Source: Corallococcus exiguus
GTDB lineage: Bacteria; Myxococcota; Myxococcia; Myxococcales; Myxococcaceae
DNA length: 64,000 nucleotides
Reading direction: 5' to 3' (one strand)
Assembly: GCF_013155175.1 (NCBI RefSeq)
Contig: NZ_JABJTS010000010.1
The notes under the pieces were generated by a model. The model had not been told where the DNA came from. It ran no database searches and worked only from the letters and a program-made list of their open reading frames with translations. Position 1 is the first letter of the stretch, and every line of letters starts with the position of its first letter. Below, in pieces: positions 1-30,597 of the stretch. A program made the position numbers and the translations under genes.

Positions 1-47
1 CCTCCCATGCGGGCCATGACTCCCCCACCTTCTTTGGGGGGTGGACG

Positions 48-446
48 ATGAAGCGAGGCCATTGGAGAGGTGCCTGGGGGCTGGCTGCCGCGCTGCTCGG
101 GCTTCCGGCGGTGGGGCAGATGGAAGGCCCACCCGAGGGTGCGTCGCAATACTCCTGCTTCGAAGCGGCGCGCCAGGGCAGCTCGGTGAGTGAGAGCATC
201 GCGGCGCAGCTCTGCCAGGGTGCCCGTTCCGACACCCCGGCACAGTGCTTCCTCCGGGTGAAGGAGAAGGGCTTCCTCGCCGACCCGCAGGCGCTCCAGC
301 TCTGCCAGTACGCCCAGCCCTCGGATGATCCCGCGGCATGCTTCTTCAAGGCGCGGACGTCCTCGTTCCTGGACGAGACCCAGCTCCTGGAGCTCTGCCG
401 CCCGCCCATCGCGCAGATGCTGAAGATGTGTCCCTACGGTCCGTGA
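48..446 (+). CDS. Small secreted Cys-rich protein with three internal repeats (QLCQ...C...CF)
   Basis: ATG at 48. N-terminal hydrophobic signal-like segment (WGLAAALLGLPAVG). Three ~35-aa repeats each with 3 Cys. GC3-rich codons. No recognisable family. Confidence 0.45.
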   Translation: MKRGHWRGAWGLAAALLGLPAVGQMEGPPEGASQYSCFEAARQGSSVSESIAAQLCQGARSDTPAQCFLRVKEKGFLADPQALQLCQYAQPSDDPAACFFKARTSSFLDETQLLELCRPPIAQMLKMCPYGP

Positions 447-464
447 GGCTTCACGCCGTGGGGC

Positions 465-3149
465 TCACCGGGCGCGGAGGAACGCCTTGACGCTCGGGGA
501 CTGGAGCTTCTGGGACTCGATGCACAGCCGGATGGACTCCAGGGCCCGGGTGAGCGCGCGCGGTCCGCCTTCAATCTTGTCCACGCGGGGCGTGAGGAAC
601 GTCTCCACCTGCGCCAGGTGGATGTCATCGCAGAGGCTCCCCGTCTGGCCAATCAGCCGGCCCAGCTCATCCGAACGCAGCCGCTGGGCCAGCGCATCGA
701 AGTGCGTCTGGTAGAAGTTCCACGCCAGCGACTGCGACTCCGGCGACATCAACGCCATCCGGAGGATGATCTGCGAGTCGCGCACGTCGAAGTCCGGAGA
801 CACCACGAGCCCCAACGCCCTCCACAACAGCTCCGGGCTCCGGAAGTAGCCCAGCGACATCAGCAGCCGGGAACGCTCGGTGCGGTCCTGTTCCTTCTTC
901 GCCGCTTCCAGCAGCGCGTCGAACAGCGCCGCATCGCCGTGCGTCGCCGCTCGGGGCAGCGCGGCACTGAACGCCTCCGGGTCCACCGACTTGCGGTCCG
1001 CCAGCCATGCGCGCACCAGGGGCAGCGCCTCCTTCACCAGCCGAGGGTCATCGCCCAGACCCCCGGCCAGCCGGAGGAACAGGGAGCGTGAATCCTTCAC
1101 GGAGTCGTCCTCGCCCGGCTTCGGCACCCAGCCCATGGCCCGCGCGCGCGCCGAGTAGAGCGAGGCCACCCACGCGCGGAAGCGCTGGCGCTCCTCGGGC
1201 GTGAGCTGCTCCAGACGCACGAGCTCCAGCAGCGAGGCGCCGCTCTGCACCACGAGCCGGTTCGTCGACTTCGCGGAGGCAGGCACCGCCTTCAGCGCCT
1301 CCCCCAGCGGCAGGTCGCCCCGGCTCACCGCCGCATCCACATCCGCCCAGAGCGCCATCTGCTCCGCGGGAGTGAAGGCGGCGGCCGGAGTCGCGAGCAG
1401 CTTCGTCAACTGCTCGCGGGTGTAACCGCCGCGGTAGTAACCCGTGCCGCCCGCGTTGAGCAGCACCCACGCCGGGCACTGCTTCGAGGGCAGCGCGACC
1501 TCCGTCGAGGGCCCCTGCACCATCGAGCACACCCGCGACGACTGCGTGCCCGTGCCCACGCGAAGACACACGGGCACCTGCCATTCCTGCCGCGAGTCCG
1601 CCTTGGAGCCCACGGGCAGGTACCGCTCCTGCGACAGCTTCACGGACGGAGCACCGCCCGCCGGGCACGACAGCTGCGCGGTGATCCGAGGCGCCCCGCT
1701 CCGCTCGATGAACCCGCCGAAGGATTGCGCCACCTCCGGCCCCGCCGCCTGGGACAGGTCCGCGAGGAAGTCCTCCATCGTCGCGACCTTCCACGCGTGC
1801 TTGCGGACATAGCCCCGGAGGAAGTCGCGGAAGCGCTCCGGTCCCATCCAGGCCTCGTACATGGCGATGACGGACGAGCCCTTGTCATACGTCGTCCCGT
1901 TGTCGAACGAGCCCACGATGTCGTCATTGCTCTCCACCGGCTTGCGCACGGGCAGCGCCGACGCCAGCTCATCCGACGCCAGGGCGGAGCGGGTCGCGGA
2001 CATGGCGCGCTCCTGCTGGTAGTCCCAGGACGGCTCCAGCCGGTCCACGGTCTGCCGGTCCAACCACGCGGTGAAGGATTCGTTCAGCCAGATGTCGTTC
2101 CACCAGGAGCAGGTGACGACGTCCCCGAACCAGTAGTGGCCCAGCTCATGGTTGGCGATGACCGCGTACGACTTGCGGCGAGCCAGCGTCTCCTCGCCGG
2201 GCGGAATGAGCGTGAGCGGCTGTCCGAGCGCGACGATGCCCGGGTGCTCCATGGTGCCCCAGTACCGGGGCACGACCGCCACATCGAGCTTCTCGTACGG
2301 ATACGGCTGGTCGAAGAAGTCCTCCAGTCCCTTCACGATGCGAGGCGTGATGCTCGCGGCGAAGCGAGTCTCCGCACCCCGGCCCTTGGGGACGATGAAG
2401 CGCAGCGGCACGTTCGTGCGTCCCACGGTGCCTGCCTCCACCACGTCGAACGGCCCCACCATGAAGGCCACGAGGTAGCTGGGCATCGGCTTGCTTTCCG
2501 CGAAGGTGACGCGCTCCAGGCCGTCCGCCAGCGGTTCGCGCGACACGACGGGATGGTTGGCCAGCGCCACGTGTCCGGCCTTCACGGTGAAGCGCAGGCG
2601 CCACGGCACCTTGAAGGTCGGCTCGTCGAAGCACGGGAAGGCACGGCGCGCGTCGATGGGCTCGAAGAACGTGTAGAGGTAGGGCTCACCGCCCTCCTCC
2701 ACCCCGTAGATGCCCTGGCTGCGCTCACGGTCCACCTTGCCCGTGAAGTCGAGCAGGAGCTGGGCCTTGCCCACCGGCAGTTCCTCCGGCAGCAGCAATC
2801 CCAGACGTCCTTCGGGCGCGGTGACAGGCTTCGCGGCGAACGTGCGGCCCGCCACGGTGACACGCGCCCGCGTCACTTCCACGTCCTGCGCATGCAGCCA
2901 CACCTGGCGCACGGGCTCGCGGACCTCCACGTCGATGGTGACGCTCCCCGGGTACGTGTCCTCCTTGGGCACGAGCTTCAGGTCCAGCGCGTAGTGCACG
3001 GGCCGCACGGTGTCCGGCAACCGTAGCGCGGGAGGCAGTGCCTCCGGCCACGAGACGGCGGGCGGCGCGGAAGCAGCCGGTGCGGCCTCCGGCGCGTGGG
3101 CACAGCGGACGGTCAACACCACCAGGACGAGGAGTGGGAGCAGTCGCAT
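465..3149 (-). CDS. Aminopeptidase N-like zinc metallopeptidase (M1 family), secreted
   Basis: N-terminal signal peptide (MRLLPLLVLVVLTVRCAHA). GAMEN-like motif (WGTMEHPG). HELGHYWFG...WLNESFTAWL zinc-binding HExxH-(18)-E motif diagnostic of M1 peptidases. 894 aa. Confidence 0.9.
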   Translation of the reverse strand: MRLLPLLVLVVLTVRCAHAPEAAPAASAPPAVSWPEALPPALRLPDTVRPVHYALDLKLVPKEDTYPGSVTIDVEVREPVRQVWLHAQDVEVTRARVTVAGRTFAAKPVTAPEGRLGLLLPEELPVGKAQLLLDFTGKVDRERSQGIYGVEEGGEPYLYTFFEPIDARRAFPCFDEPTFKVPWRLRFTVKAGHVALANHPVVSREPLADGLERVTFAESKPMPSYLVAFMVGPFDVVEAGTVGRTNVPLRFIVPKGRGAETRFAASITPRIVKGLEDFFDQPYPYEKLDVAVVPRYWGTMEHPGIVALGQPLTLIPPGEETLARRKSYAVIANHELGHYWFGDVVTCSWWNDIWLNESFTAWLDRQTVDRLEPSWDYQQERAMSATRSALASDELASALPVRKPVESNDDIVGSFDNGTTYDKGSSVIAMYEAWMGPERFRDFLRGYVRKHAWKVATMEDFLADLSQAAGPEVAQSFGGFIERSGAPRITAQLSCPAGGAPSVKLSQERYLPVGSKADSRQEWQVPVCLRVGTGTQSSRVCSMVQGPSTEVALPSKQCPAWVLLNAGGTGYYRGGYTREQLTKLLATPAAAFTPAEQMALWADVDAAVSRGDLPLGEALKAVPASAKSTNRLVVQSGASLLELVRLEQLTPEERQRFRAWVASLYSARARAMGWVPKPGEDDSVKDSRSLFLRLAGGLGDDPRLVKEALPLVRAWLADRKSVDPEAFSAALPRAATHGDAALFDALLEAAKKEQDRTERSRLLMSLGYFRSPELLWRALGLVVSPDFDVRDSQIILRMALMSPESQSLAWNFYQTHFDALAQRLRSDELGRLIGQTGSLCDDIHLAQVETFLTPRVDKIEGGPRALTRALESIRLCIESQKLQSPSVKAFLRAR

Positions 3150-3731
3150 GGGGGCGCAGCGTAGACCAACGTCCGCCAGCGGTCTTCGCAGCCTGGATGC
3201 GGCCGGTGACTACACGACTCCGACGTCGGCCGGGTCCACCATGATGATGTGTCGAGTCCCTCCGAACAGGGGCACGCCAATGCGGGAAACGTTGAGAACA
3301 AGGACGCCGTCGCTCTCGATCTCCTCGATCGTGAAGACCTGACCGACACATGCCAGGAAGAGGCGCTGAATTCCCTACGAGCCATTCGTTCATGCAAGCA
3401 CCAGGACATCCAGCCACCAGCCATTCCCAGGCGTGGGCACACGGATGGTTACGACTTTGTTCCGTCCGTACAGTCAAGACCATCGTGGTCCCACGACGGC
3501 GGACACGGATCATGCCTCAGGATGCTGCGTTTCAGCTCGCGTCCAAAGCCATCCTGGGACGTCTCCAATCCATAGCGCCGCAGACACGACGCGCAGAGCC
3601 CCACCCCGCCACGGGGTACTCATAGACCCCGATCGGGTTTAGACAGACACCGCAGAACCCCACAACATGTCTGTCTTCATGCGTCCAAACTGATAGATCG
3701 CCCTTTCCTCTCACTTCGCCAGGAACGTGCG

Positions 3732-6074
3732 ATGCGCCGACAAGCCACACCGCCTCGGGTTTTGTTTTACGCACTAATCAGCGCTGTCATTTCTGTCATG
3801 GCCTGCGACACGGGGGGCGAGCCGGAGCGGGAGACCGGCAACGTCCGGTTCGTCAGCGCGGTGCCCCAGGCGCTCGCGGGCGATGAGATCACCCGCGTGA
3901 CCGTCACGCTGACGGCGTCCGGCGTGCCTTCCGCCACCACCGTGCTCACGAAGGGCACGGATGGCTGGAGCGGCACCATGTACCAAGTGCCCGCCGGCAC
4001 CCAGCGCACCTTCACCGCGGAGGCCTTCGCCGCGGACGGCGCCCTGCGCTACCGGGGCGCGGCCTCGGACGTCACCATCACCGCGGGCACGACCTCCATC
4101 GTGGCCATCACCCTCCAGGCGCTGAATGGCCCGGGCCCGTTCGACAACTCGGCCCCGTGCATCGACTCGCTCGTGGCATCCGCGAGCAGCATCCTCCCCG
4201 GGGGCTCCATCTCCCTCCAGGCCACGGCGCATGATCCGGATGCGTCCGACTCCATCACGTACGCCTGGACGGCGGCGGATGGCACCTTCGGTTCGCCCAC
4301 GCTCACGTCCACGACCTGGACGGCGCCCGTGACCCCGGGCGTCTATGGGCTGACGTTGACGGTCATCGACTCGCGCGGCGCCACGGCGACCATCCGCATC
4401 GACATCACCGTCATCTCCAAGGACGGCGGCACCACGGCCGGCACCGCGGAGGTGTCCGTCACGTTCAACATCTCCCCCGCCGTCACCCGCGTCACCGCGT
4501 CCCGGTCCCCCGTGCCCGTGGGCCAGAGCACCACCGTCACCGCGGACGTGACGGATCCGGACGGCGACGCGCTGACCTACCAGTGGGCCGCGTCCTGCGC
4601 GGGCACCTGGACCGATGACACCTCCAACGTCGCCTCCTTCACCCCGACCGCCGTGCCCGCTGGCGACTCGTGCGGCAACTGCGCGCTCACCGTCACCGTG
4701 AAGGATCCGAAGGGCGGCCAGACGCAGGGCACGCTGCGCATCTGCGTGGGCGACGGCGCGACCACCAACGTTCCCCCGCGCATCGTCCTCGCGCACCAGA
4801 GCAGCGCGTCCGTGGTGGGCGACAGCACCGTGACGTTCCGCGTCCTCGCCGAGGACGGCAACGGTGGCGCCCTCACCTTCAACTGGGCCTCGAGCACCGG
4901 CACGCTCGCGGCGCCCTCGTCCGGGTTCACCTCCAGCGAGACCTCCTGGAAGGCCCCCACCTGCGCGCCCACCGGCGGGAACGCGACCGTCACCGCCACC
5001 GTCACCAACGCCCAGGGCTTCTCCGCGTCCCAGGCCTTCACCGTGGCGGTGCAGAACGCCCCCGCGTGCACGCCGCCCACCACGGTCGCGCGGTGGGACC
5101 TCACGGCCAGCATGACGCAGCGCCGCTTCGGTGCGAGCCTCATCCCCCTGGCCTCCGGGAAGATCCTCGTCTTCGGCGGGACGATTTCCTCCACCGCCCT
5201 GGGCACCGCGGAGCTCTACGATCCCGCGACGGGGACCTGGTCTTCCGCTGGAACGCTGGGCACCGCGCACTACAACCCCGCGGTGACACTGCTGCCCTCT
5301 GGCAAGGTCATGGTCACGGGCGGCTTCGTGGCGTACCCGGCCAGCACCGCGCTGCGCGCCGTGGAGTTCTATGATCCCGCGACCAACACCTGGACGGCTG
5401 GCCCGCAGATGGGCTTCGCGCGCGGCGCCCATACCTCGACGCTACTGCCCAACGGCAAGGTCCTGGTCATCGGCGGCGTCACCACGGGCGACACCGTCAG
5501 CAACCGCTCCATCGAGCTCTACGACCCCGCCACGAACAGCTGGGTGCCGGTGGCGAGCCCGACCTATGCCCGGTCCAACCACCGCGCGGTCCTGCTGCCG
5601 TCGGGCAAGGTGCTCACCGTGGGCGGCAACCTGCCGTCGGAGATCTACGATCCGTCCAACAACACCTGGAGCACCGCCACCGGCCTGACGACGCGGACCT
5701 TCACCGACGCCTTCCTCCAGCCGTCTGGCAAGGTCGTCCTGGTGGATGGGACGCTGGTCGCGACGTACGACCCGGTGCTCAACGTCCAGGCCACGCTGGG
5801 CAACTTCACCTACGAGCGCGCCAGCTCATCCCTGGTCCGGCTGAACTCCGGGAAGCTGCTGCTCGCGGGCGGGAACTCCACGGTGGGCCTGACGACGGAG
5901 GTCTTCGACCTTTCAACCGGTACCTCCGCGTTCTCCACCAGCATGGCGTCCAACCGCTACCTGATGGCCACCACCGTGCTTCCCAGCGGCAAGGTGCTCT
6001 TCATCAGCGGCTATGACCGGGACGACGGAGCAACCGTCAGCGCCGTCCTCGTCTACACGCCCGCGAGCCCCTGA
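3732..6074 (+). CDS. Lipoprotein with PKD/Ig-like repeats and C-terminal Kelch (galactose-oxidase-like) beta-propeller repeats
   Basis: Lipobox ISVMAC. Repeated 'DPDGDALTYQWAAS' PKD-type segments. C-terminal six-plus repeats of 'LLPSGKVLVxGG...ELYDPATNTW' typical of Kelch blades. Confidence 0.8.
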   Translation: MRRQATPPRVLFYALISAVISVMACDTGGEPERETGNVRFVSAVPQALAGDEITRVTVTLTASGVPSATTVLTKGTDGWSGTMYQVPAGTQRTFTAEAFAADGALRYRGAASDVTITAGTTSIVAITLQALNGPGPFDNSAPCIDSLVASASSILPGGSISLQATAHDPDASDSITYAWTAADGTFGSPTLTSTTWTAPVTPGVYGLTLTVIDSRGATATIRIDITVISKDGGTTAGTAEVSVTFNISPAVTRVTASRSPVPVGQSTTVTADVTDPDGDALTYQWAASCAGTWTDDTSNVASFTPTAVPAGDSCGNCALTVTVKDPKGGQTQGTLRICVGDGATTNVPPRIVLAHQSSASVVGDSTVTFRVLAEDGNGGALTFNWASSTGTLAAPSSGFTSSETSWKAPTCAPTGGNATVTATVTNAQGFSASQAFTVAVQNAPACTPPTTVARWDLTASMTQRRFGASLIPLASGKILVFGGTISSTALGTAELYDPATGTWSSAGTLGTAHYNPAVTLLPSGKVMVTGGFVAYPASTALRAVEFYDPATNTWTAGPQMGFARGAHTSTLLPNGKVLVIGGVTTGDTVSNRSIELYDPATNSWVPVASPTYARSNHRAVLLPSGKVLTVGGNLPSEIYDPSNNTWSTATGLTTRTFTDAFLQPSGKVVLVDGTLVATYDPVLNVQATLGNFTYERASSSLVRLNSGKLLLAGGNSTVGLTTEVFDLSTGTSAFSTSMASNRYLMATTVLPSGKVLFISGYDRDDGATVSAVLVYTPASP

Positions 6075-18741: not shown

Positions 18742-19797
18742 ATGCCGATGAAGACCACCGGATACGCGGCGCATTCCGCGGATGCGCCTCTTTCTCCCTA
18801 TACCTTCGAACGCCGCGAGCTCCGGCACAACGACATCGCGATGGAGGTCCTCTATTGCGGCATCTGCCATACGGACCTGCATATGGCGCGCAACGACTGG
18901 GGCGCGACCCGGTACCCGTTCGTTCCCGGTCACGAGTTTGTTGGACGTGTCATCGCCGTTGGCTCGGACGTTTCACGCCACAAGATGGGCGACGCCGTGG
19001 CGGTGGGATGCATGCTCGACAGCTGCCAGCGCTGCGACCAGTGCCGCAAGGGCGAAGAGCAGCTCTGTCGCGAGGGCCATACCCACACGTACAACGGCAT
19101 GGACCGGGTGACCGGAGATCCAACCTACGGGGGCTACTCGAAGTTCATGGTGGTCCGGGAGGAGTTCGCGCTCCGCATGCCGGCCGCGCTCGCCCTTTCG
19201 AAGGCGGCGCCGCTGCTCTGTGCTGGCATCACGACGTACTCCCCGCTACGGACGTGGGGCGTCGGTCCGGGGAGCCGCGTGGGGGTCATTGGACTGGGGG
19301 GGCTTGGCCACATGGCGGTCAAGTTCGCCGTCGCAATGGGCGCCGAAGTCACCGTGCTGAGCCGCAGCGCCGCCAAGGAAGCGGACGCCCTCGCGCTCGG
19401 TGCGGATCGCCTGTTGGTGTCGACGGATGCCAAGGCGATGGCGAAAGCAGGCTCAAGCCTCGATCTCATCATCGACACGGTGCCGACGAAGCACGAGCTC
19501 CTCCCCTACCTGCCGCTCCTGGATATCGACGGAACGCTCGTCATCGTGGGTCAGGTCGGGCCACTGGCCGAGACGAGCTCGGTGCCACTTCTCTTCGGCC
19601 GTCGCCGCATCGCGGGCTCGCCCATCGGCGGTCTCGCCGAGACCCAGGAGATGCTCGATTTCTGCAGCCGGAAGCAGGTGCTTCCAGATTGCGAGCTGAT
19701 TCGCATCGATCAGGTGAACGAGGCCTACGAGCGGCTCGGGCAAGCAGACGTTCGGTACCGCTTCGTCATCGACATGGCCTCGTTGCCACAGCCGTGA
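18742..19797 (+). CDS. Zinc-dependent NADP alcohol dehydrogenase (cinnamyl-alcohol-dehydrogenase/YahK-like)
   Basis: 'GICHTDLH' catalytic Zn motif, 'GHEFVGRVIAVG', structural Zn Cys cluster (CxxCxxCxxxxxxxC), GxGxxG 'GLGGLGHMAV'. 351 aa. Confidence 0.9.
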   Translation: MPMKTTGYAAHSADAPLSPYTFERRELRHNDIAMEVLYCGICHTDLHMARNDWGATRYPFVPGHEFVGRVIAVGSDVSRHKMGDAVAVGCMLDSCQRCDQCRKGEEQLCREGHTHTYNGMDRVTGDPTYGGYSKFMVVREEFALRMPAALALSKAAPLLCAGITTYSPLRTWGVGPGSRVGVIGLGGLGHMAVKFAVAMGAEVTVLSRSAAKEADALALGADRLLVSTDAKAMAKAGSSLDLIIDTVPTKHELLPYLPLLDIDGTLVIVGQVGPLAETSSVPLLFGRRRIAGSPIGGLAETQEMLDFCSRKQVLPDCELIRIDQVNEAYERLGQADVRYRFVIDMASLPQP

Positions 19798-19820
19798 AGT
19801 CACCCAAGGAATCCAACATC

Positions 19821-22122
<2,302 letters not shown>

Positions 22123-22245
22123 AGTGTCCAAGAACTCCTCCAGCGAAGCGGTTCCGTCTTGGCTCGATCCCCGGCGTTTGTTCGAATGCCTTCCTGTCAG
22201 CGGGCCAGGATGCTCTGGCCCGGTGGCCCCCACCCCGGAGGAAGC

Positions 22246-22473
22246 ATGAAGGCATCGCGACTGAAGCAGACGATTCCTGGATTCGCGCTGATCATCGGCA
22301 TCATGGCGGGCACGGCCCTGGCCATGGTTCCCGGCTCGACGGCGGAGACGACTGATAGCCAGACGTCCGCGGTCCAGATGATCTGTTCGCGCACCTGCAA
22401 GCCGTGCTCGACCCAGATGGAGTGCGGCACGAGCGGCGGTTCCTGCGGGGTCTGGCGCTGCACCCAGCCGTAA
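22246..22473 (+). CDS. Small secreted Cys-rich peptide (75 aa)
   Basis: ATG at 22246 with GGAGGA RBS. Signal/TM segment 'FALIIGIMAGTALAMV' then 'CSRTCKPCSTQMECGTSGGSCGVWRC' (7 Cys in 27 aa). Followed by a strong terminator. Confidence 0.45.
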   Translation: MKASRLKQTIPGFALIIGIMAGTALAMVPGSTAETTDSQTSAVQMICSRTCKPCSTQMECGTSGGSCGVWRCTQP

Positions 22474-22479
22474 ACACAA

Positions 22480-22515
22480 GCGCCTCCGAGTCCCAGGACT
22501 CGGAGGCGCTCTTCT
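22480..22515. terminator. Rho-independent-type hairpin between convergent small-peptide gene and nadC
   Basis: GCGCCTCCGAGT-cccagg-ACTCGGAGGCGC perfect 12-bp stem followed by TCTTCT. Confidence 0.6.
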
Positions 22516-22542
22516 ACGGATTCGTGAAGACCGCTGACCGCT

Positions 22543-23421
22543 TCAGCCCTGCGCGGAGCGGGGCTTGCGCGTGGACTTCTTCGTCGTCGCGATCTCCAGC
22601 GACAGGTCCATGGCCCGCGCCGAGTGCGTCAGCGCGCCCATCGACACGAAGTCCACGCCCAGCTTCGCCAGCCGGGGCAGCCGGTCCAACGTGACGCCGC
22701 CCGACACTTCGATGGGCACGCGGCTCGCCGTCAGCTTCACCGCTTCGCGGATCTGCGCGTCGTCCATGTTGTCCAACATGATGACGTCCGCGCCCGCGGC
22801 GATGGCCTCCTCCAGCTGCTTGAAGTTGGTGACCTCCACTTCAATCTTCACCAGCCGGGGACCGTTCAGCTTCGCGCGGCGCACCGCTTCGGTGATGTCG
22901 CCACCTACCGCCGCGATGTGGTTGTCCTTGATGAGGATGCCGTCGAAGAGGCCGAAGCGGTGGTTGGACGCGCCTCCCATGCGCACCGCGTGCTTCGCGA
23001 GGCCTCGCATGCCCGGCGGAGTCTTGCGCGTGTCCAGCACCCGCAGCTTCGAGCCCCGCACGGAGGTCATCGCCTGCTGGGCCAGCGTCGCGATGCCGGC
23101 GGCGCGCTGCACCAGGTTGAGCGCCGTGCGCTCCGCGGCCAGCAGCGAACGCAGCTTGCCGTGGACGCGCGCGGCGACCACCTTCGGTTTGATCTCCTCG
23201 CCGTCGCGCTTGAGGACCTCCACCTCCACCTCCGCGTCCACCATGTGGAAGACGCGGACGAAGGCGTCCAGGCCGGCGACGATCATCTGCTCCTTCGCGA
23301 CCAGCTCACCGCTGCCCTCCGCTTCGGCGGGGACCACCGCCAGCGAGGTGACGTCCCCCGCAGCACCCAGGTCCTCGTCGAGGGACAGCGCGATGAGCCG
23401 ATCGAGATAATCCTGCTGCAC
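22543..23421 (-). CDS. nadC: Nicotinate-nucleotide pyrophosphorylase (quinolinate phosphoribosyltransferase)
   Basis: Full-length collinear NadC ([26 protein letters not shown]...). 292 aa. Confidence 0.9.
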
Positions 23422-23430
23422 TTCCGCCTC

Positions 23431-26400
23431 CTACCGGCGCGCCTTGCGAGCCGGCTTGCCCCGAGTGGTCTTCTTCGCCGCGGCCTTCTTCGCGGCGGTC
23501 TTCTTCCCCGCCGCCTTCTTCGCCGAAGCCTTCTTCGCAGGAGCCTTCTTCACCGCCGCCTTCTTCGCGGCCGTCTTCTTGCCCGCTGCCTTCTTCGCGG
23601 AAGCCTTCTTCGCAGGGGCCTTCTTCGCGGCGGACTTCTTGCTCGCCGCCTTCTTCGCGGAGGCCTTCTTCACCGCCGCCTTCTTCGCGGAGGCCTTCTT
23701 CGCAGGGGCCTTCTTCACCGCCGCCTTCTTCGCGGAGGCCTTCTTCGTCGGAGCCTTCTTCACCGGCTTCGCCGAGCCCTCCGGCGCCTCGCGGGCGTCG
23801 CCGCCCTCCTTGGCCCGGTCGAACTCGCGCATCGCGTCGTCCACGAGGCCCATGCTCATGTACGCGACGCCCAGGTCGTGGTGGTCCGCCGGGGACAGCC
23901 CTTCCTTGGTGCCCTCGCGCAGCTTGTTGAGGGCCTCCTCCACCATCGGATCCGCGGCCTGGGGCGCCTGCGAAGCCTCTTCGGCTTCAATCTCGCCCTT
24001 CAGCTCCTGGCCCAGGTTCACCGCTTCGTCCTTCGGTGCCTGCGGCTCGGTGGCCACCTTCACCTGGGCGCTCTCAGGCGCGAGGGACTCGGACGCTTCA
24101 GGGGCTTCGGACTCGGTGCTGCCCGGCAACGGCGACGGCGTCTCGGACATGGGGGGCTCCGGGGCGATGCGCTGGAGGTGATCCTGCAGCTTGACCGTGC
24201 GCTCCTGGAGCTCCGCCACCCGGGCCTTGTCCTTCTCCACCACGTCCGGCGGAGCACGGGCCACGAAGTTCGGGTTGTCCAGCTTGCGCTGCAAACCGGC
24301 GAGTTCCTGCTCGGCGCGGACGATCTCCTTCTTCAGGCGGTCGCGCTCCGCGTCCAGGTCCACCAGGCCCGCCAGGGGCACGTAGATTTCCAGGTTGCCG
24401 CTCACGAACGCCGCCGCCTGCGGAGGCTTGGCGCCCGGGGGGCCCACCACCACCTCGGACAGGCCCGCGAGCGGCATCAGGTACGCGCGCCAACGCTCCA
24501 ACAGCTCGCGCGTCGTCGCGTCCGGGCTCTGCACCACCGCCTTCACCTTGGCGGACGGCGGCAGGTTGCTCTCGCCGCGCAGCGTGCGCAGGCCCTCGAT
24601 GGCCGCGATGACCGGCGCCATCTCGCCTTCCGAGGCCGCGTCCACCCACGCCGTCTCCGGCGCCGGGTAGGCCGCGATGCAGATGCTCTCCGTGGGCCGG
24701 GACATCGGCAGCTTCTGCCAGATCTCCTCGGTGATGAACGGCATGAACGGGTGCATCAGCCGCAGGATGCGGTCCAGGCACGTCACCAGCACCGCGCGCG
24801 TGGTGTCCTTGGCCTCCGCGTCGTCGCCGTACAACGAGCCCTTCGCCAGCTCGATGTACCAATCGCAGAACTCCGCCCACAGGAACTGGTACAGCGTGGA
24901 CGCGGCCTCCGCGAAGCCGAACGCCTCCAGCGACGCGCGCGTCTCCTCGGTGGCCTTCTGCAGGCGGGAGAGGATCCACCGGTCCGCCAGCGTCAGCTTG
25001 CGGCCCTCCAGCGGCGTCTTGTCCAGGCTGAAGTCGCCCATGTTCATCAGGGCGAAGCGGCTGGCGTTCCACAGCTTGTTGCAGAACGCCTTGTAGCCAC
25101 CCAGGCGGTCCATCGACAGCTTGATGTCACGGCCCTGCTGCGTGAGCGACGCCAACGTGAAGCGCAGCGCGTCCGCGCCGTGCGCGGGCATGCCCTGCGG
25201 GAAGCGGTTGCGCAAGGACGGCTGCAGCGACTCCGCCTTCGCGCCGAGGATGACGTCCAGGGGATCGATGACGTTCCCCTTCGTCTTGGACATCTTCTCG
25301 CCCTTCTCGTCGCGCACCATCGCGTGCAGGTACACGGTGCGGAAGGGCACGTCGTTCATGAAGTGCAGGCCCATCATCATCATCCGGGCGACCCAGAAGA
25401 AGATGATGTCGTGGCCCGTCTCCATCACGGACGTCGGGTAGAAGGTCTGGAGATCCGCCGTCTGCTTCGGCCAGCCCAGCGTGGAGAACGGCCACAGCGC
25501 GGACGAGAACCAGGTGTCCAGCACGTCCGGATCCTGCGTCAGCTCCTTGCCGCCGCACTTCGGGCAGGACTCCGGCGCCGTGCGCGACACGATGACGTCC
25601 GCCGTGTCCTTCGAGCGCTCTTCCGCCGGGGTGCACGCCGCGCAGTACCACGCCGGAATCTGGTGGCCCCACCACAGCTGGCGGCTCACGCACCAGTCGT
25701 GGATGTTGTTCATCCAGTGGAAGTACGTGTTCGTCCACGACTCGGGGACGAACTTGGTGCGGCCCTCCTCCACGGCCTGGATGGCCGGCTTCGCCAGGGG
25801 TTCGATCTTGATGAACCACTGCGGCGACAGGCGCGGCTCCACCACCGTGGTGCAGCGCTGGCAGGTGCCCACGTTCAGCTTGTGCGGCTCCTCCTTCTCC
25901 AGCAGGCCCAGCTCCGTCAGGTCCGCCAGCACCTGCGTGCGCGCCTCCCGGCTCTCCAGGCCCGCGTACTTGCCGGTGTCCTTCGTCATCCGCGCCGCTT
26001 CGTCCAGGATGGACAGCATCGGCAGCTTGTGGCGCAGGCCCGTCTGGTAGTCGTTGAAGTCGTGCGCGGGCGTGACCTTCACCACGCCGGTGCCGAACTC
26101 CATGTTCACCAGCTCGCCGTCCGCGATGACCGGAATCTCACGGTCGGTGAGCGGCAGCGCCACGCTCTTGCCGATGAGGTCCTGGTAGCGCGGATCCTCC
26201 GGGTGCACGGCGACGGCCGTGTCGCCCAGCAGCGTCTCCGGGCGCGTCGTCGCCACGGTGAGGAAGCGCTCCGTGCCCTTCACCGGGTAGCGGATGTGCC
26301 AGAGCGAGCCGTTCTTCTCCTCGTGCTCCACTTCCAGGTCGGAGAGGGCCGTGCGGCAGGACGGGCACCAGTTGATCAGCTTCTGGGCCCGGTACATCAG

Positions 26401-26910
26401 GCCCTCTTCGTACAGCCGGACGAACACCTCGCGCACCGCGGCCGAGGACTGCTCGTCCATGGTGAAGCGCTCGCGGCTCCAGTCCAGGGACGCGCCCAGG
26501 TAGCGGTGCTGCTCACCGATGCGCGCGCCGAACTTGCCCTTCCACGTCCAGACGCGCTCGAGGAACGCCTCGCGGCCCAGGTCGTGGCGGCTCTTGCCCT
26601 CCGTCTTCTTGAGCTCCTTCTCCACCACCATCTGCGTGGCGATGCCCGCGTGGTCCGTGCCCGGCAGCCAGAGCGCGTTGAAGCCGCTCATCCGCTTCCA
26701 GCGCGTGAGGATGTCCTGGATGGTCGCGGTGAGCGCGTGGCCGATGTGCAGGCTGCCCGTCACGTTGGGCGGCGGCAGCACGATGCTGAACGGCGGCTTG
26801 GAGGAAGGGGCTTCGGCGCGGAAGTAGTCGCGCTCCAGCCAGTGGTTGTACCACCGCGCCTCCACTTCGGAGGGCTCGTAGGCCTTGGACAGTTCAGTCG
26901 TGTCAGTCAT
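23431..26910 (-). CDS. valS: Valyl-tRNA synthetase with about 250-aa C-terminal extension (acidic linker, TPR-like helix pair, histone-H1-like AKKA/KKA repeat tail)
   Basis: Class I aaRS HIGH (SLHIGHALT) and KMSKS ([12 protein letters not shown]) motifs. Canonical C-terminal coiled coil (…[30 protein letters not shown]…). In-frame continuation into '[27 protein letters not shown]…' (about 25 repeats). Confidence 0.95.
23450..23770. repeat. Coding tandem repeat (about 15/30-nt units) encoding the AKKA tail of ValS
   Basis: Reiterated 'gccttcttcgcggcggtcttcttc / gccgccttcttcgcggaggccttcttc' units visible on + strand. Confidence 0.8.
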
Positions 26911-26963
26911 TGCAAGCGGCCGGCCCCCGACGGGGCCGGCGGGGAATCAGAGGGGACTGCGAA

Positions 26964-28226
26964 TCAATGCTGGGTCTCGCGGTCCTTGATGAGCCGCTCC
27001 AGCTCTTCCCGGATGATGGTCTCCGCCAGCTGCGGAACGACCTCCCAGGCAATCTTCTCGATGACCTCGCGGGACGCCTTCGACAGCGCCTCGCGCAGCA
27101 GCGCCTCTCCGCCATCCGCGGCCGGACGGGCGCGCGAGGGAGGAGTCGCCGGCGAGGGGCCGCCGATGTCCAGGGAGATCTCCTCCGCGCCGCTGGGCTC
27201 GGGCAGCGAGTCCTCGATGCGGATGCTCTCCGTGCGGGCCTGCGCCGCGGGCGGGGCGGCCGGAGCGCCCAGCCCGAACGGATCCCGGGCACGGGCGGCC
27301 GGAGGCACCGCGGCGGGCGGGGGCGCGGACGGCAGCGGCGCGGCGCCCGGAGGACGCGGGAAGCCGCCCGGGATGTTCGGGGCGCCAGGGCCCGGAGGAC
27401 GCGCGGCCATGCCCGGAGGCGGCGCACCCGGAGGACGCGCGCCCGGAGGCACGGCACCCGGAGGAGGACGCGCACCCGGCGGCATGGCGCCCGGAGGCGG
27501 CGCACCCGGAGGACGCGCGCCCATGCCCGGAGGCGGCGCACCCGGCGGAGGACGTGCACCCGGCGGCATGGCGCCCGGAGGCGGCGCACCCGGAGGACGC
27601 GCGCCCGGAGGAACAGCGCCCGGCAGCGGACGCGCCGCACCCGGAGGAGGAGGCACACCAGCGCCCGGAGGACGCGCGCCCGGAGGCACGGCACCCGGAG
27701 GAGGACGCGCACCCGGCGGCATGGCGCCCGGAGGCGGCGCACCCGCGGGACGCGCACCCGGCGGCACGGCGGCGGCGGGCGGCGCGCTGACCGGAGCGCT
27801 CGGGGCGGAGGTCTGGGGCAGAATGCGCGTCGCGGCGGACGCGGGCATCGTGTTGGACTTCTGGCCCACCAGCGCCTTCACCTTGTCGAGGAGGATCTGG
27901 CTCTCGAAGGGCTTGGTGATGTGGTCATCCGCCCGGGCGGCCTTCGCGCGGTTCTCGTCGAACGCCTCGAAGGTGCCGGCGAGCAGCAGCACCGGGATGG
28001 CCTGCGTGGAGGGGTCGCCCTTGAGCGCCTCGCAGACCTCGTAGCCGCTCTTGCCCGGCATCATCACGTCGGCGAGCACCACGTCCGGACGCAGCTCGCG
28101 CGTGCGGGAGATGGCGTCCAGCCCGTTGTCCACCGCGGTCACCTGGAAGTCTTCCGTCGCGAAGATCATCCCGATCACCTTGCGGATGGTGAGCGAGTCG
28201 TCGGCGATCAGTAGATTCTTGGGCAT
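26964..28226 (-). CDS. romR: Response regulator with receiver domain, long Pro-rich (PPGARPPGA) repeat linker and Glu-rich C-terminal tail; RomR-like architecture
   Basis: CheY-like receiver (LLIADDSLTIRKVIGMIFA…VLADVMMPGKSGYEVCE…TKPF). About 220 aa of PGARPP repeats. Acidic C-terminal 60 aa. Identical domain order to Myxococcus RomR (from memory). ATG at 28226 (MPKNLL) preferred over the upstream starts at 28250 and 28310. Confidence 0.6.
   Translation of the reverse strand: MPKNLLIADDSLTIRKVIGMIFATEDFQVTAVDNGLDAISRTRELRPDVVLADVMMPGKSGYEVCEALKGDPSTQAIPVLLLAGTFEAFDENRAKAARADDHITKPFESQILLDKVKALVGQKSNTMPASAATRILPQTSAPSAPVSAPPAAAVPPGARPAGAPPPGAMPPGARPPPGAVPPGARPPGAGVPPPPGAARPLPGAVPPGARPPGAPPPGAMPPGARPPPGAPPPGMGARPPGAPPPGAMPPGARPPPGAVPPGARPPGAPPPGMAARPPGPGAPNIPGGFPRPPGAAPLPSAPPPAAVPPAARARDPFGLGAPAAPPAAQARTESIRIEDSLPEPSGAEEISLDIGGPSPATPPSRARPAADGGEALLREALSKASREVIEKIAWEVVPQLAETIIREELERLIKDRETQH
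27330..27780. repeat. Coding tandem repeat encoding PGARPP/APPPGAM units
   Basis: Reiterated 'gcacccggaggacgcgcgcccggaggcacg' units on + strand (antisense of the response-regulator gene). Confidence 0.8.
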
Positions 28227-28343
28227 CGGCTCCGGCCTCGGGGGGCGCATACCCCCCTGAATTCGTTTGAGATTTCGGGCGAGCAAGCCTGCCTGCACGC
28301 CCTGTGTCAATCGGAGAAGCTTAGGATTCGCGCGTTGGGCCGA

Positions 28344-29210
28344 TCAAGAAAACATGCGCTGCAGGTCCAGTAACATCACCGGATCCGGCAGCCCCGGCGC
28401 CCGGAACGTTCCGGGAAGCTCGGCCGGCTTGAACTTCTGCAGCACACCCAGCACCCGGTTGGCCGCCAGCCCCACGTTCCGCCCCGCCATTTCCGTGAGG
28501 ACGAACAACTCCTCCGCCTGGGCCGGCGCACCCAGCAGCGCTGGAATCGAACAGATGGGCCATAGCGCCTGCGCGTGGGGATAGACGCCCGCCACCGGCC
28601 CGCTCTGCACCGGGAGGACGCTGAACGCCTCGCCCCGGGGTACCACCTGGGAGACGCAACCCAGCGGGACGCCGAACAGCACCCCCTGGGACTCCAGCAC
28701 CAGCGCCCGCTCAGGGGGCTCGTCCGCATAGTGCACGGGCCGGGGCTCTGGCGGGGTCGCCCGGGGGCCCGCCCGGTGCGGCAGCGCCTCCACGATGAGC
28801 TCCAGGTACAGCCGGTCCTTGTGCAGCACCGCGCCCCGGCTCAGCGGCGCCAGCGAGTCCGCCAGTCCCGGAGGCAGCAGGAAGAACGGATCCCTCGCGA
28901 CGTCCGCGACCTCCACCACGGCGCGCACCCGCACCGCGAGCGTGGGGCTGACGTCCAGGACCACCACCATGCCCGGCACTTCCTCAGGCAGGCCGCCGAG
29001 CAACGCGGCGAGGTCCTTCACTTCCAGTACGCCGCGCAGACTCGCGCCGCGAGCGCCCGGCATCGCGACCTCGATGACGGAGGTGGCCTCCACCGCGTAG
29101 CGCGTCTCTCCGGCCTCCACCAGCAGGCAGAGCCGCCGTCCGCTTTCAAAGGGCACGGCCCGGGACCCTAGCAGCCTTCCAGCGTTGGGTGCTAAGCCCT
29201 GAACAGTCAT
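28344..29210 (-). CDS. CheW-like domain protein (two CheW-like halves)
   Basis: Two segments with CheW-like 'R(Y/F)A(V/L)…V…V' cores (ETRYAVEATSVIEV…; ERALVLESQGVLFGVPLGCVSQVV…). ATG at 29210 (MTVQGL). Divergent from the GGDEF gene with 2-nt start overlap. Confidence 0.55.
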   Translation of the reverse strand: MTVQGLAPNAGRLLGSRAVPFESGRRLCLLVEAGETRYAVEATSVIEVAMPGARGASLRGVLEVKDLAALLGGLPEEVPGMVVVLDVSPTLAVRVRAVVEVADVARDPFFLLPPGLADSLAPLSRGAVLHKDRLYLELIVEALPHRAGPRATPPEPRPVHYADEPPERALVLESQGVLFGVPLGCVSQVVPRGEAFSVLPVQSGPVAGVYPHAQALWPICSIPALLGAPAQAEELFVLTEMAGRNVGLAANRVLGVLQKFKPAELPGTFRAPGLPDPVMLLDLQRMFS

Positions 29211-30597
29211 GGCGCGACTGCTCCTCGTCGACGACGAAAAGATCGCCCGCAATCTCTACGGCGACTACCTCACGGCCGCGGGACACCTGGTCACGGCGGT
29301 GCCCACCGTGGCGGACGCGAAGGCCGCACTCTCCGCGGCGCGGTTCGACGCGGTGGTGACGGACCTCATCCTCCCCGGCGGCGACGGCATGGAGGTGCTT
29401 CGCCACGTGCGCGAGCGCTACCCCGGCGTGGAGGTGCTGGTCATCACCGGCCTGGACAAGGTGGCCCCCGCGGTGCGCGCCATCAAGAGCGGCGCGGCGG
29501 AGTACCTGGTCAAGCCCGTGGCGCCGGAGGCCCTGGAGCACGCGCTGCGCCGCGCGCTCACCACGCGCGACCTGATGCGTGAGAACGCGTCCCTGCGCCA
29601 GCACGTCGCGCTGCTGGAGGCGGGCCAGCGCATCGCCACCACGCTCGACCGCGAGCGGCTGTCCACGGCCGCGTCCGACGCGCTGGAGTCCATGGCCAAC
29701 GCCTCCGCGGTGATGCTCCTGGAGCGGGACCCTGGCGGCACGGGCTTCCGCTCGCACGGCATGCGCGGGCTGCCGGTGGACCTGCACGAGGCGCTCGTCC
29801 CGCTGCTCATCGAGCGGCTTTCGGGCACGCGCACGCAGGTGGAGCTCGACGGACTTCAAGTTCCCTGGCCGCGCACCCTCTCCTTCCCCGCCGTGGACGG
29901 CGAGCTGGTGCTGGGCCACGCGGTGCTCTTCCACGACAACGCGCCCGCGGAGCACCACGCGGAGACCGTGGGCTTCCTCGTGCGCAACTGGGCGCTGGCC
30001 CTGCGCAACCTGGGCCGCTTCGCCGCCGTGGAGGACCTGGCCTACGTCGATGATCTCACCCGCCTGTTCAACACGCGCTACCTGCACCTGGTGCTGGACC
30101 GCGAGGTGAACGAGGCCCTCCAGACGGAGCGCCCCTTCTCCCTGCTGTTCCTGGACCTGGACCGCTTCAAGGCCATCAACGACACGCACGGGCACCTGGT
30201 GGGCTCGCGGGTGCTGGTGGAGGCCGCGCGCGTGCTCAAGGGCTGCGTGCGCGACCCGGACGTGGTGGCGCGCTTCGGCGGCGACGAGTACGTGGTGCTC
30301 CTGCGCGGCACGGACTCCGGCGGGGCCCTCAAGGTCGCCGAGCGCATCCGCCGCACCATGGAGACCCATCAGTTCCTGGGCCGCGAGGGGCTGGCGCTCA
30401 AGCTCACCACCTGCATCGGCGTGGCCAGCTTCCCGGAGCATGCCCAGGACAAGGACCACCTGCTGGACCTGTCCGACCGGGCCATGTACCGGGGCAAGCG
30501 CGGCACCCGGAACGTCGTCTACATGGCGGCGCAGGACCTGGAAGCCACCCCGGCCGAGCGCCGTCAGAATCCCCCGCCCCCGCAGGGCCAGGGCTGA
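29209..30597 (+). CDS. Response regulator receiver + GAF-like + GGDEF diguanylate cyclase (PleD-like)
   Basis: Receiver (LLLVDDEKIARNLYGDYL…DLILPGGDGMEVLRHVR…KPV). C-terminal 'RFGGDEYVVLL' GGDEF active site and I-site-like RxxD upstream. Confidence 0.9.
   Translation: MARLLLVDDEKIARNLYGDYLTAAGHLVTAVPTVADAKAALSAARFDAVVTDLILPGGDGMEVLRHVRERYPGVEVLVITGLDKVAPAVRAIKSGAAEYLVKPVAPEALEHALRRALTTRDLMRENASLRQHVALLEAGQRIATTLDRERLSTAASDALESMANASAVMLLERDPGGTGFRSHGMRGLPVDLHEALVPLLIERLSGTRTQVELDGLQVPWPRTLSFPAVDGELVLGHAVLFHDNAPAEHHAETVGFLVRNWALALRNLGRFAAVEDLAYVDDLTRLFNTRYLHLVLDREVNEALQTERPFSLLFLDLDRFKAINDTHGHLVGSRVLVEAARVLKGCVRDPDVVARFGGDEYVVLLRGTDSGGALKVAERIRRTMETHQFLGREGLALKLTTCIGVASFPEHAQDKDHLLDLSDRAMYRGKRGTRNVVYMAAQDLEATPAERRQNPPPPQGQG

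Follow-up and report, generated by a model that had tools for sequence, protein, structure and literature searches.

Among the aminoacyl-tRNA synthetases (aaRSs), appended lysine-rich extensions that bind RNA, and tRNA-binding cofactors that act in trans, are seen as characteristic of eukaryotes; to our knowledge, bacterial examples are essentially limited to a folded module of the oligonucleotide/oligosaccharide-binding (OB) fold, as found in Trbp111 and at the C-terminus of methionyl-tRNA synthetase (MetRS). In eukaryotes, non-specific RNA binding by the lysine-rich extensions boosts tRNA affinity (PMC2992532; PMC6213541). The domain appended to yeast valyl-tRNA synthetase (ValRS; residues 1-98), for example, binds tRNA with a dissociation constant of ~2 uM and contributes to aminoacylation, and lysine-rich aaRS extensions as a group bind RNA non-specifically (PMC2992532). 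Other tRNA-binding modules occur both free-standing and fused to a synthetase, as documented for Trbp111, Arc1p and MetRS (PMC11286949). Here we examined valS, the gene for ValRS, in a 64,000-nucleotide stretch (the window) of contig NZ_JABJTS010000010.1 from Corallococcus exiguus (RefSeq assembly GCF_013155175.1). The encoded protein, ValS, continues past the end of the canonical enzyme into a long polycationic tail, and comparison with related loci indicates that the last 244 valS codons are a small neighbouring gene joined in frame to valS.

The window protein belongs to the valine--tRNA ligases, a family of class Ia aaRSs. Pfam places tRNA-synt_1 at residues 20-599 (E 1e-150), Anticodon_1 at 643-792 and Val_tRNA-synt_C at 851-915; the protein scores 1135 bits with TIGR00422, the general ValS model of NCBIfam (cutoff 612); and both the HIGH motif (SLHIGHAL) and the KMSKS motif (KMSKT) are readable in the translation. 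Past residue 915 of the coiled coil, the frame stays open for 244 further codons. An earlier sequence-only reading of this DNA had proposed just this, a genuine ValS extended in frame, and the family matches bear it out; the position it gave for the start of the extension, 23431, falls instead on the stop codon, and the extension proper occupies 23434..24165. The protein also matches NF011492 (PRK14900), a long-form ValS model of 1044 positions, with 1819.3 bits against a curated cutoff of 1783. This match covers window residues 1-1103 and model positions 3-1020, with the tail alone aligning to model positions 866-1022. The extended ValS architecture is therefore already an annotated NCBIfam family, of which NF011492 is a naming hidden Markov model only; what it has in common with the window ValS is the extended architecture.

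The origin of the extension becomes apparent from loci in which it is a gene of its own. In Myxococcota, a small open reading frame (ORF) with an acidic lead followed by a polycationic K/A(/R) tail lies between valS and nadC, and in crown Myxococcaceae it also encodes a module of ~70 amino acids (aa) that ends in one tetratricopeptide repeat (TPR) hairpin. Most genomes, and the window among them, lack the valS stop codon, and the small ORF is read through with valS. In two metagenome-assembled genomes (MAGs) of Myxococcaceae (L013 and L014), by contrast, ValS is 914 and 918 aa long and ends in ...NLSRI-TGA, at the residue aligned to I915 of the window protein. There, 11-13 nt past the valS TGA, CCTGGAGG(G)AACG-ATG (GGAGG-N3-5-ATG) opens a separate ORF of 134-140 aa, which begins MSE(E)RTPEEM..., continues through a Met/Gly-rich acidic part and finishes in a K/R-rich tail reaching ...SRR just before nadC. 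In L016, a relative of these two, MSEKTPEEM is fused in frame to valS, with AAG in place of TGA. The 24.7-kb contig with P0149 carries valS (925 aa, with the coiled coil), a 31-nt gap, a 172-aa module-plus-tail gene and nadC in succession. At L082, valS ends in ...QPEA-TGA and its stop overlaps the ATG of the small gene (TGATG; CCGGAGGCATGATGG), an overlap that we read as classic translational coupling. A further locus, L081 (a JGI metagenome contig, 1..4787, present in two samples), has romR, a stand-alone 342-aa gene for the module and a K/R/P-rich tail, and nadC, the first two of these lying only ~115 nt apart and the valS core missing from its usual place; either the core has been relocated or the contig is misassembled. 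A Pfam scan of the stand-alone small proteins found no family. In those of L013 (5743..6207) and L014 (5755..6227), the acidic N-terminus is separated from the K/R tail by an unusual block rich in Met and Gly (GMGGMGG...GMGMGMGG). Overall, 24 of the 26 module-bearing metagenomic loci have the fused state, which is maintained in different genera at core identities as low as 55 %; a crude neighbour-joining tree shows this state to be widespread, with the split state in nested positions.

The junction preserves the beginning of the small gene. In the window, the frame runs through CGC ATC GCC CCG GAG CCC CCC ATG (R I A P E P P M921), in which GGAG, six nucleotides and the ATG of Met921 represent the ribosome-binding site and the start codon kept from the formerly separate downstream gene. 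At the split loci L013, L014 and L082, CCGGAG/GGAGG likewise precedes the ATG of the separate ORF. Of 17 tail-bearing genomic loci, distant Myxococcales included, 13 retain the pattern 'P-E-x-x-M', as do 13 of 22 fused ORFs from metagenomes. Across an alignment of 34 sequences, 18 of the 19 that have this segment show Met (16) or Val (2) in the Met921 column, whose entropy is 0.77 as against 1.3-3.0 at neighbouring positions. The internal Met is lost in Archangium, in Cystobacter and in a 'short-linker' class (AP[VL]EVKIAPP). With the Shine-Dalgarno sequence and ATG retained, translation of the tail protein may still start on its own. Among the metagenomic loci, L090-L106 form a second fused class that has neither acidic linker nor internal Met; the module follows directly on the coiled coil (RIAP[VL]EVKIAPP...), and this class has shorter basic tails, at +16 to +30.

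ValS lengths were taken from genome and metagenome loci, the relatives having been found by a scan of one genome per species and the metagenomic loci by a scan with the conserved module. Such a comparison across Myxococcales had been suggested along with the sequence-only reading, and tails indeed recur across genera. In Corallococcus, the tailed ValS is 1169 aa long, in four Myxococcus species 1242-1294 aa and in Archangium 1132-1182 aa; tailed ValS is also found in a Cystobacter MAG and several Myxococcaceae MAGs, and two distant Myxococcales MAGs have K/R/G-rich ValS tails. Non-myxobacterial ValS, by comparison, comprises 888-959 aa and ends at the coiled coil. The nearest relative in the species scan is Corallococcus praedator (91 %). 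Of the 26 loci recovered in the metagenome scan, ~19 hold a fused ORF at full length (1033-1306 aa), and 5 are contig-edge fragments with the ValS coiled coil in frame. The tailed architecture occurs in >35 independent loci, a recurrence far beyond chance.

The extension also bears the marks of selection. Codon-level comparison of the window valS with C. praedator and Myxococcus yielded ratios of nonsynonymous to synonymous substitution rates (dN/dS) of 0.24-0.39 for the catalytic core, 0.43-0.82 for the linker, the least constrained segment, and 0.125-0.26 for the module (0.125 versus C. praedator), which is as low as the core; the K/A tail gives 0.12-0.33, with ambiguous alignment within the repeats. 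The G+C content at third codon positions (GC3) is 0.97 for the core, compared with 0.90 for the linker and 0.92 for the tail. The low dN/dS and the conservation together indicate that the extension is a selected, translated part of valS and not an assembly error. That the tail is translated and selected had been argued before from its lysine codons. All 43 of these are indeed AAG, but so are the 49 of 49 in the core, and AAG usage alone therefore discriminates little. GC3 is the stronger sign of coding, and translation under selection is supported by dN/dS, by conservation across genera and by the stop-free frame in other assemblies.

The ~70-aa module, with 20 invariant columns in 13 orthologues, contains what had been described as a TPR-like helix pair. 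In an AlphaFold2 (AF2) model of the module alone, computed with 41 sequences, the final two helices, which form the TPR hairpin, reach predicted local distance difference test (pLDDT) scores of 96-98, and the modelled hairpin superposes on the TPR units of consensus TPR (CTPR) proteins and of MamA with 0.4-0.5 Å over 29-30 residues. A profile of the module compared with PDB sequences matched consensus TPR proteins (E 2.7e-9). The hairpin thus conforms to the structural definition of a TPR, a 34-residue helix-turn-helix hairpin with the consensus pattern W/LG/Y/A/F/A/P and matching superposition. The isolated module stays below the Pfam gathering threshold for TPRs (TPR_2, 16.6 bits versus 27; E 0.0086), as is usual for a lone repeat. 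It does not amount to a functional TPR domain, which has at least three tandem TPRs and a superhelical groove; here, one hairpin and two preceding helices are followed by the K/A tail. Searched by itself with Foldseek, the module had no significant match over its whole length (best E 0.7), the TPR hairpin alone superposing.

The helix pair is hence a true TPR unit, but one that forms part of a longer module related to SgmX. An exhaustive HMMER search with the module against 1.84 billion representatives returned 530 matches, which comprise ValS fragments, multi-TPR proteins matched repeat by repeat (hundreds of them, at query residues 44-90) and a group with the whole three-part pattern of [FV]DLGxEL, an acidic stretch, and a helix plus TPR (HYDLGIAYKEMGLLDDAxxEF). 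Every member of this last group matches the C-terminal portion of the NCBIfam SgmX model. With hhalign, the ValS module aligns to the start of the SgmX-type C-terminal domain (its first ~85 columns) with a probability of 99.0 % and E 2.7e-18 over 77 columns. The window protein itself matches the SgmX model NF052243 (type IV pili formation protein) locally, at positions 813-925, with 31-34 bits against a cutoff of 1800, and it is not an SgmX, which is an all-TPR protein of ~1060 aa. In Myxococcus xanthus, the C-terminal TPR12-14 of SgmX (the 'M domain'), which lie downstream of Gly802 and are removed in the mimB allele, suffice on their own to bind MglA-GTP (PMC7668184; PMC9811614). On the strength of these alignments, we regard the ValS module as a homologue of the SgmX C-terminal lead-in and the first of its three TPRs. 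It shares the three-part pattern with the SgmX-C-like proteins and is without the further two TPRs and the ...KKIGYL end of the SgmX C-terminal domain.

In all orthologues, the extension consists of an acidic block followed by a basic block. Residues 916-1005 of the window protein are rich in Glu (E18), Ala (A14), Pro (P12) and Ser (S8), and the acidic block, counted to the start of the basic tail, spans 123 aa with a net charge of -19. Over the orthologues, the linker varies from 0 to ~110 aa and the net charge of the acidic block from -3 to -33 (-11 to -33 in all but one), whereas the basic block carries +29 to +59, mostly +45 to +50, despite lengths of 85-233 aa. An AF2 model of residues 846-1159 assigns pLDDT values of ~95 to the coiled coil, 73-85 to the four module helices and <50 to the linker and K/A tail; this model of coiled coil plus tail showed no confident packing of the module on the coiled coil (predicted template modelling score 0.29). 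Just upstream of the module helices lies an 'xVKV/IAxP' motif, with V950, A953 and P956 kept in 32-33 of 34 aligned sequences; the stand-alone small genes also carry it, as V[KRTQ][VI], and it could represent a strand or a linear motif for binding. The tail of L009, an Archangium MAG, has a (KPTPAP)n-like Pro/Thr/Lys repeat block before its KKA repeats, and Archangium and Cystobacter have a Pro/Thr/Lys block plus very acidic D/E runs in place of the TPR module.

The last 124 aa of the window protein contain 43 Lys and 43 Ala, with only 7 Pro. Tandem Repeats Finder reports a period of 15 nt and 19.7 copies at 23470-23765; the repeat unit is therefore the pentapeptide KKAxA in ~20 copies, and the K/A-rich repeats recognized earlier stand, although not as some 25 tetrapeptides. 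With Pfam, the tail also scores as histone-H1-like, HC2 (PF07382, Hc2) matching it with 41.5-45.7 bits against a cutoff of 40. The histone-H1-like models of NCBIfam remain under their cutoffs (hist_H1_lk_Burk, 44.7-49.7 versus 80; Hc2, 29-33 versus 135), and these matches are largely composition-driven. The tail is not a KPAA domain of the AlgP/PhaF type, given its 5-aa KKAxA period and few Pro residues; the resemblance is compositional. Repeat number was expected to be hypervariable. It does vary, and species differ more, with ValS lengths of 1098-1306 aa across species, but among close relatives the change is modest: P0001 and P0002 (C. coralloides), 92-96 % identical to the window sequence, differ from it by tail indels of exactly 1-2 5-aa units. 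The same (KKAxA)n tail, ~110 aa long and ending ...RARRS, is present on Obg, a ribosome-associated GTPase, of Stigmatella, Archangium and relatives (P0091, P0116, P0031, P0070), so that more than one translation-linked protein of this clade bears this kind of tail, and similar K/A tails occur elsewhere on adenylate kinase, DksA, HU, RsfS and others. No other ORF with a K/A tail or the module was found in the 64-kb window.

The surroundings of valS (Table 1) follow the published romR locus of M. xanthus, with the order two-CheW gene, romR, valS, nadC. In that species, the corresponding order is MXAN4461/MXAN4460, and MXAN4460 was noted just as 'similar to Val-tRNA synthetases' (PMC2034494). The genes at 28344..29252 (minus strand) and 29209..30597 (plus strand; REC-GGDEF) match the published locus as well. 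The likely start of romR, which encodes an orthologue of the polarity regulator RomR, is at 28226; read from MPKNLL, its product has 420 aa, as in M. xanthus, and includes a ~250-aa Pro/Gly/Ala repeat, with a local GC content of 0.835 at 27200-27800. We considered the adjacency of romR as a sign of a functional link and rejected it: the order romR-valS-nadC is also kept where the tail or the module is absent (L013, L014, L016, L017) and, being independent of both, lends no specific support to a connection with MglA. Scanning 21500-29500 against Rfam gave no family, and no minus-strand terminator was found between valS and nadC; the terminator-like matches that fall within the tail on the plus strand are artefacts, produced by the CTTCTT repeat in antisense. 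Two plus-strand ORFs, 23444..24181 (FFAAAFF...) and 22624..28044 (1806 aa), were likewise dismissed as high-GC shadow frames of valS and not genes. Beyond nadC, at ~18742..22122 on the plus strand, lie four overlapping oxidoreductase ORFs (zinc-dependent alcohol dehydrogenase, short-chain dehydrogenase/reductase, aldo-keto reductase and NmrA-like) with a GC3 of 0.80-0.85 compared with 0.90-0.97 elsewhere. They show no DNA similarity to the region after nadC in C. praedator or in the closest MAG, and this block is possibly a strain-specific insertion.

Table 1. Parts of the fused valS gene and its immediate neighbours, in window coordinates.
Feature	Position	Strand	Description and evidence
Fused valS ORF	23431..26910	-	1159 aa
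Canonical ValS (aa 1-915)	24166..26910	-	Catalytic core, editing, anticodon-binding and C-terminal coiled-coil tRNA-binding arm (851-915); Pfam, NCBIfam, motifs
Fusion junction	24148..24162	-	CCG GAG CCC CCC ATG (P917 E918 P P M921); GGAG + 6 nt + ATG
Acidic S/E/P-rich disordered linker (aa 916-962)	24025..24165	-	Composition, AF2 pLDDT <50, dN/dS
Conserved helical module (aa 963-1035)	23806..24024	-	First helix VxLGxELKxE; ends in one canonical TPR hairpin, DHxDLGVAYMxMGLVDDAxREF
Short spacer between module and basic tail (aa 1036-1046)	23773..23805	-	GGD.RE.PE kept in Corallococcus and Myxococcus
Polycationic K/A tail (aa 1047-1159)	23434..23772	-	~20 KKAxA units; basic block net ~+47; predicted disordered
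Stop codon of fused ORF	23431..23433	-	nadC start 10 nt downstream
nadC (quinolinate phosphoribosyltransferase)	22543..23421	-	Downstream neighbour bounding the small gene; TIGR00078, 303 bits; synteny in all myxobacterial loci
romR orthologue	26964..28310	-	Upstream neighbour; receiver domain, Pro-rich repeat and helical C-terminus; receiver-domain matches

The anatomy of the extension is well supported; its mechanism we infer by analogy. The proposal that we favour, held at about even confidence, is that the small gene and its tail provide a non-specific RNA- or tRNA-binding cofactor, acting in cis where fused to ValRS and in trans where split from it. The disordered tail of ~+47 would serve as a non-specific electrostatic RNA-binding arm which, tethered beside the tRNA-contacting coiled coil of ValRS, could raise the local tRNA concentration or hold the enzyme on ribosomal or other RNA. 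The acidic block (~-19) and the TPR-type module may temper or direct the tail, whether through masking of its charge within the molecule or through docking of a partner; speculatively, the acidic block would mask the tail until RNA competes, and the module, equally speculatively, would dock a partner. The retained internal start may additionally yield a free protein of 239 aa. We favour an RNA-binding arm because of the analogies with lysine-rich aaRS extensions, with the free-or-fused Trbp111/Arc1p and with the tail of Obg; moreover, the fusion to valS is Rosetta-stone evidence that both products work together.

Several observations weigh against this proposal. Archangium and Cystobacter are without the module and the internal Met, and the second metagenomic class is without the acidic linker, losses which imply that not all sub-parts are essential. 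At L081, the small gene has no adjacent valS, which suggests that it can act alone. K/A tails also associate with DNA or polyphosphate granules, as in AlgP and PhaF (PMC9239181), and their presence on many unrelated enzymes means that they are not RNA-specific. The dN/dS values of the repeats are biased by the choice of alignment. The tree on which the states were mapped is a crude neighbour-joining one, compatible both with an ancestral fusion followed by fission and with repeated fusion. In the literature on the myxobacterial ValS tail, we found nothing past the remark on the similarity of MXAN4460.

Some of these observations fit other explanations. The H1-like tail might bind DNA or polyphosphate and so position ValRS or the free protein, much as in AlgP, PhaF and HupB, with any effect on aminoacylation incidental. 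Consistent with such tethering to the nucleoid or to polyphosphate are the HC2 match above threshold and the weak NCBIfam histone-H1-like match, the K/A-repeat tails of AlgP and PhaF, which bind DNA and organise granules (PMC9239181), the PAKKA repeats of Mycobacterium smegmatis Ku, which modulate DNA binding (PMC3553676), and the stand-alone gene of L081. Yet the HC2 match is largely compositional and the NCBIfam score falls short of its cutoff of 80, the same tail is carried by the RNA- and ribosome-associated Obg, and fusion or coupling is persistently with an aaRS across a whole bacterial order; we therefore consider tethering of this kind unlikely. A second explanation makes the fusion a passenger, whereby loss of a stop codon merged two coupled neighbours, the small basic protein keeps a function of its own unrelated to ValRS, and its disordered tail is tolerated. 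The existence of both fused and split states, the internal Shine-Dalgarno sequence and ATG, which are consistent with continued independent expression, the absence of an adjacent valS at L081 and the highly plastic lengths of linker and tail would all suit a passenger. A neutral accident, however, would be expected to revert or decay, whereas the fused state dominates the module-bearing metagenomic loci and spans genera at low core identity, and the module is under purifying selection within the fused frame, so that a passenger also seems rather improbable.

Considerably less probable is that the extension is primarily for protein docking, its SgmX-like TPR recruiting ValRS or the small protein to MglA-GTP or to another polarity or motility protein and the tail being secondary. 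The hhalign alignment with the SgmX-type domain, the local SgmX model match, the binding of MglA-GTP by TPR12-14 alone (PMC7668184) and the neighbouring romR point in this direction, but only one of the three TPRs is present, Archangium and Cystobacter keep the tail without the module, and the gene order at L013, L014, L016 and L017, where module or tail is lacking, makes the adjacency uninformative. Similarly improbable, in our judgement, is a two-product valS in which initiation at Met921 also gives the free 239-aa protein and a module from the MglA-GTP-binding domain of SgmX links ValRS or that protein to the polarity and motility GTPase network to which romR belongs; if true, the capacity for translation, or the supply of tRNA, would be coupled to the polarity or the development of the cell. 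An assembly or annotation artefact, that is, a missed stop or frameshift giving false read-through, is effectively refuted. Apart from the split versions in some genomes, nothing speaks for it, and the frame is open in independent assemblies of C. praedator, C. coralloides (P0002), four Myxococcus species, Archangium and Cystobacter and in ~19 metagenomic contigs; GC3 and dN/dS favour coding in the fused frame, and a curated NCBIfam model covers the long form. The sequence-only reading had named a stop or frameshift in other assemblies of the same strain as a finding that would undo it; independent Corallococcus and Myxococcus assemblies have the frame uninterrupted.

Taken together, these findings describe a whole bacterial order with a predicted disordered, polycationic ValRS appendage, present as a coupled gene or as an in-frame fusion. 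In the literature on long-form ValS, we found no description of the composition, origin, parts or function of the tail. Nor does there appear to be an account of how the fused and split forms relate, of the internal start that has been kept or of the module's SgmX-type origin. The two evolutionary states constitute a natural experiment on the origin and contribution of aaRS extensions, and they offer a bacterial counterpart to the eukaryotic extensions that is testable in the tractable M. xanthus (MXAN4460). The tail also adds to the growing number of H1-like K/A tails on housekeeping proteins, among them Obg, adenylate kinase, DksA and HU.

Among described systems, the H1-like tails (the KPAA repeats of AlgP and PhaF, Chlamydia Hc2, mycobacterial HupB and the PAKKA repeats of Ku) resemble the window tail in composition, short K/A repeats, disorder and variation in repeat number. 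The net charge is alike too, at ~+50, that of AlgP being +55 (PMC9239181). Unlike these, the tail is built of KKAxA (5 aa) and not KPAA (4 aa) units and sits on a translation enzyme, not on a DNA- or granule-associated protein; as the likeness is compositional, homology cannot be claimed. The Trbp111/Arc1p/EMAPII module offers a parallel in genetic organization, in that it too is separate in some genomes and fused to an aaRS (MetRS, PheRS, TyrRS) in others; it aids aminoacylation by general tRNA binding (PMC11286949), and the cofactor role in cis or in trans proposed for the extension corresponds to this. That module, however, is a folded OB-fold dimer that recognises the tRNA 3' end, whereas the extension described here is a predicted disordered polycation with one TPR hairpin; the Pfam scan gave no match to the OB-fold family PF01588 (tRNA_bind) at E up to 1, and AF2 predicts helices and disorder only. 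The enzyme also differs, being ValRS, and the lineage is restricted to Myxococcota; the extension is a functional analogue of Trbp111/EMAPII at most. The lysine-rich extensions of eukaryotic synthetases (yeast ValRS 1-98, GlnRS, LysRS and AspRS) are, like the tail, Lys-rich, largely disordered and absent from typical bacterial enzymes, and one of them belongs to a ValRS (PMC2992532). They are mostly N-terminal, have no tandem pentapeptides and do not derive from a neighbouring gene, whereas the bacterial tail described here lies at the C-terminus and has an acidic block and a TPR unit ahead of it.

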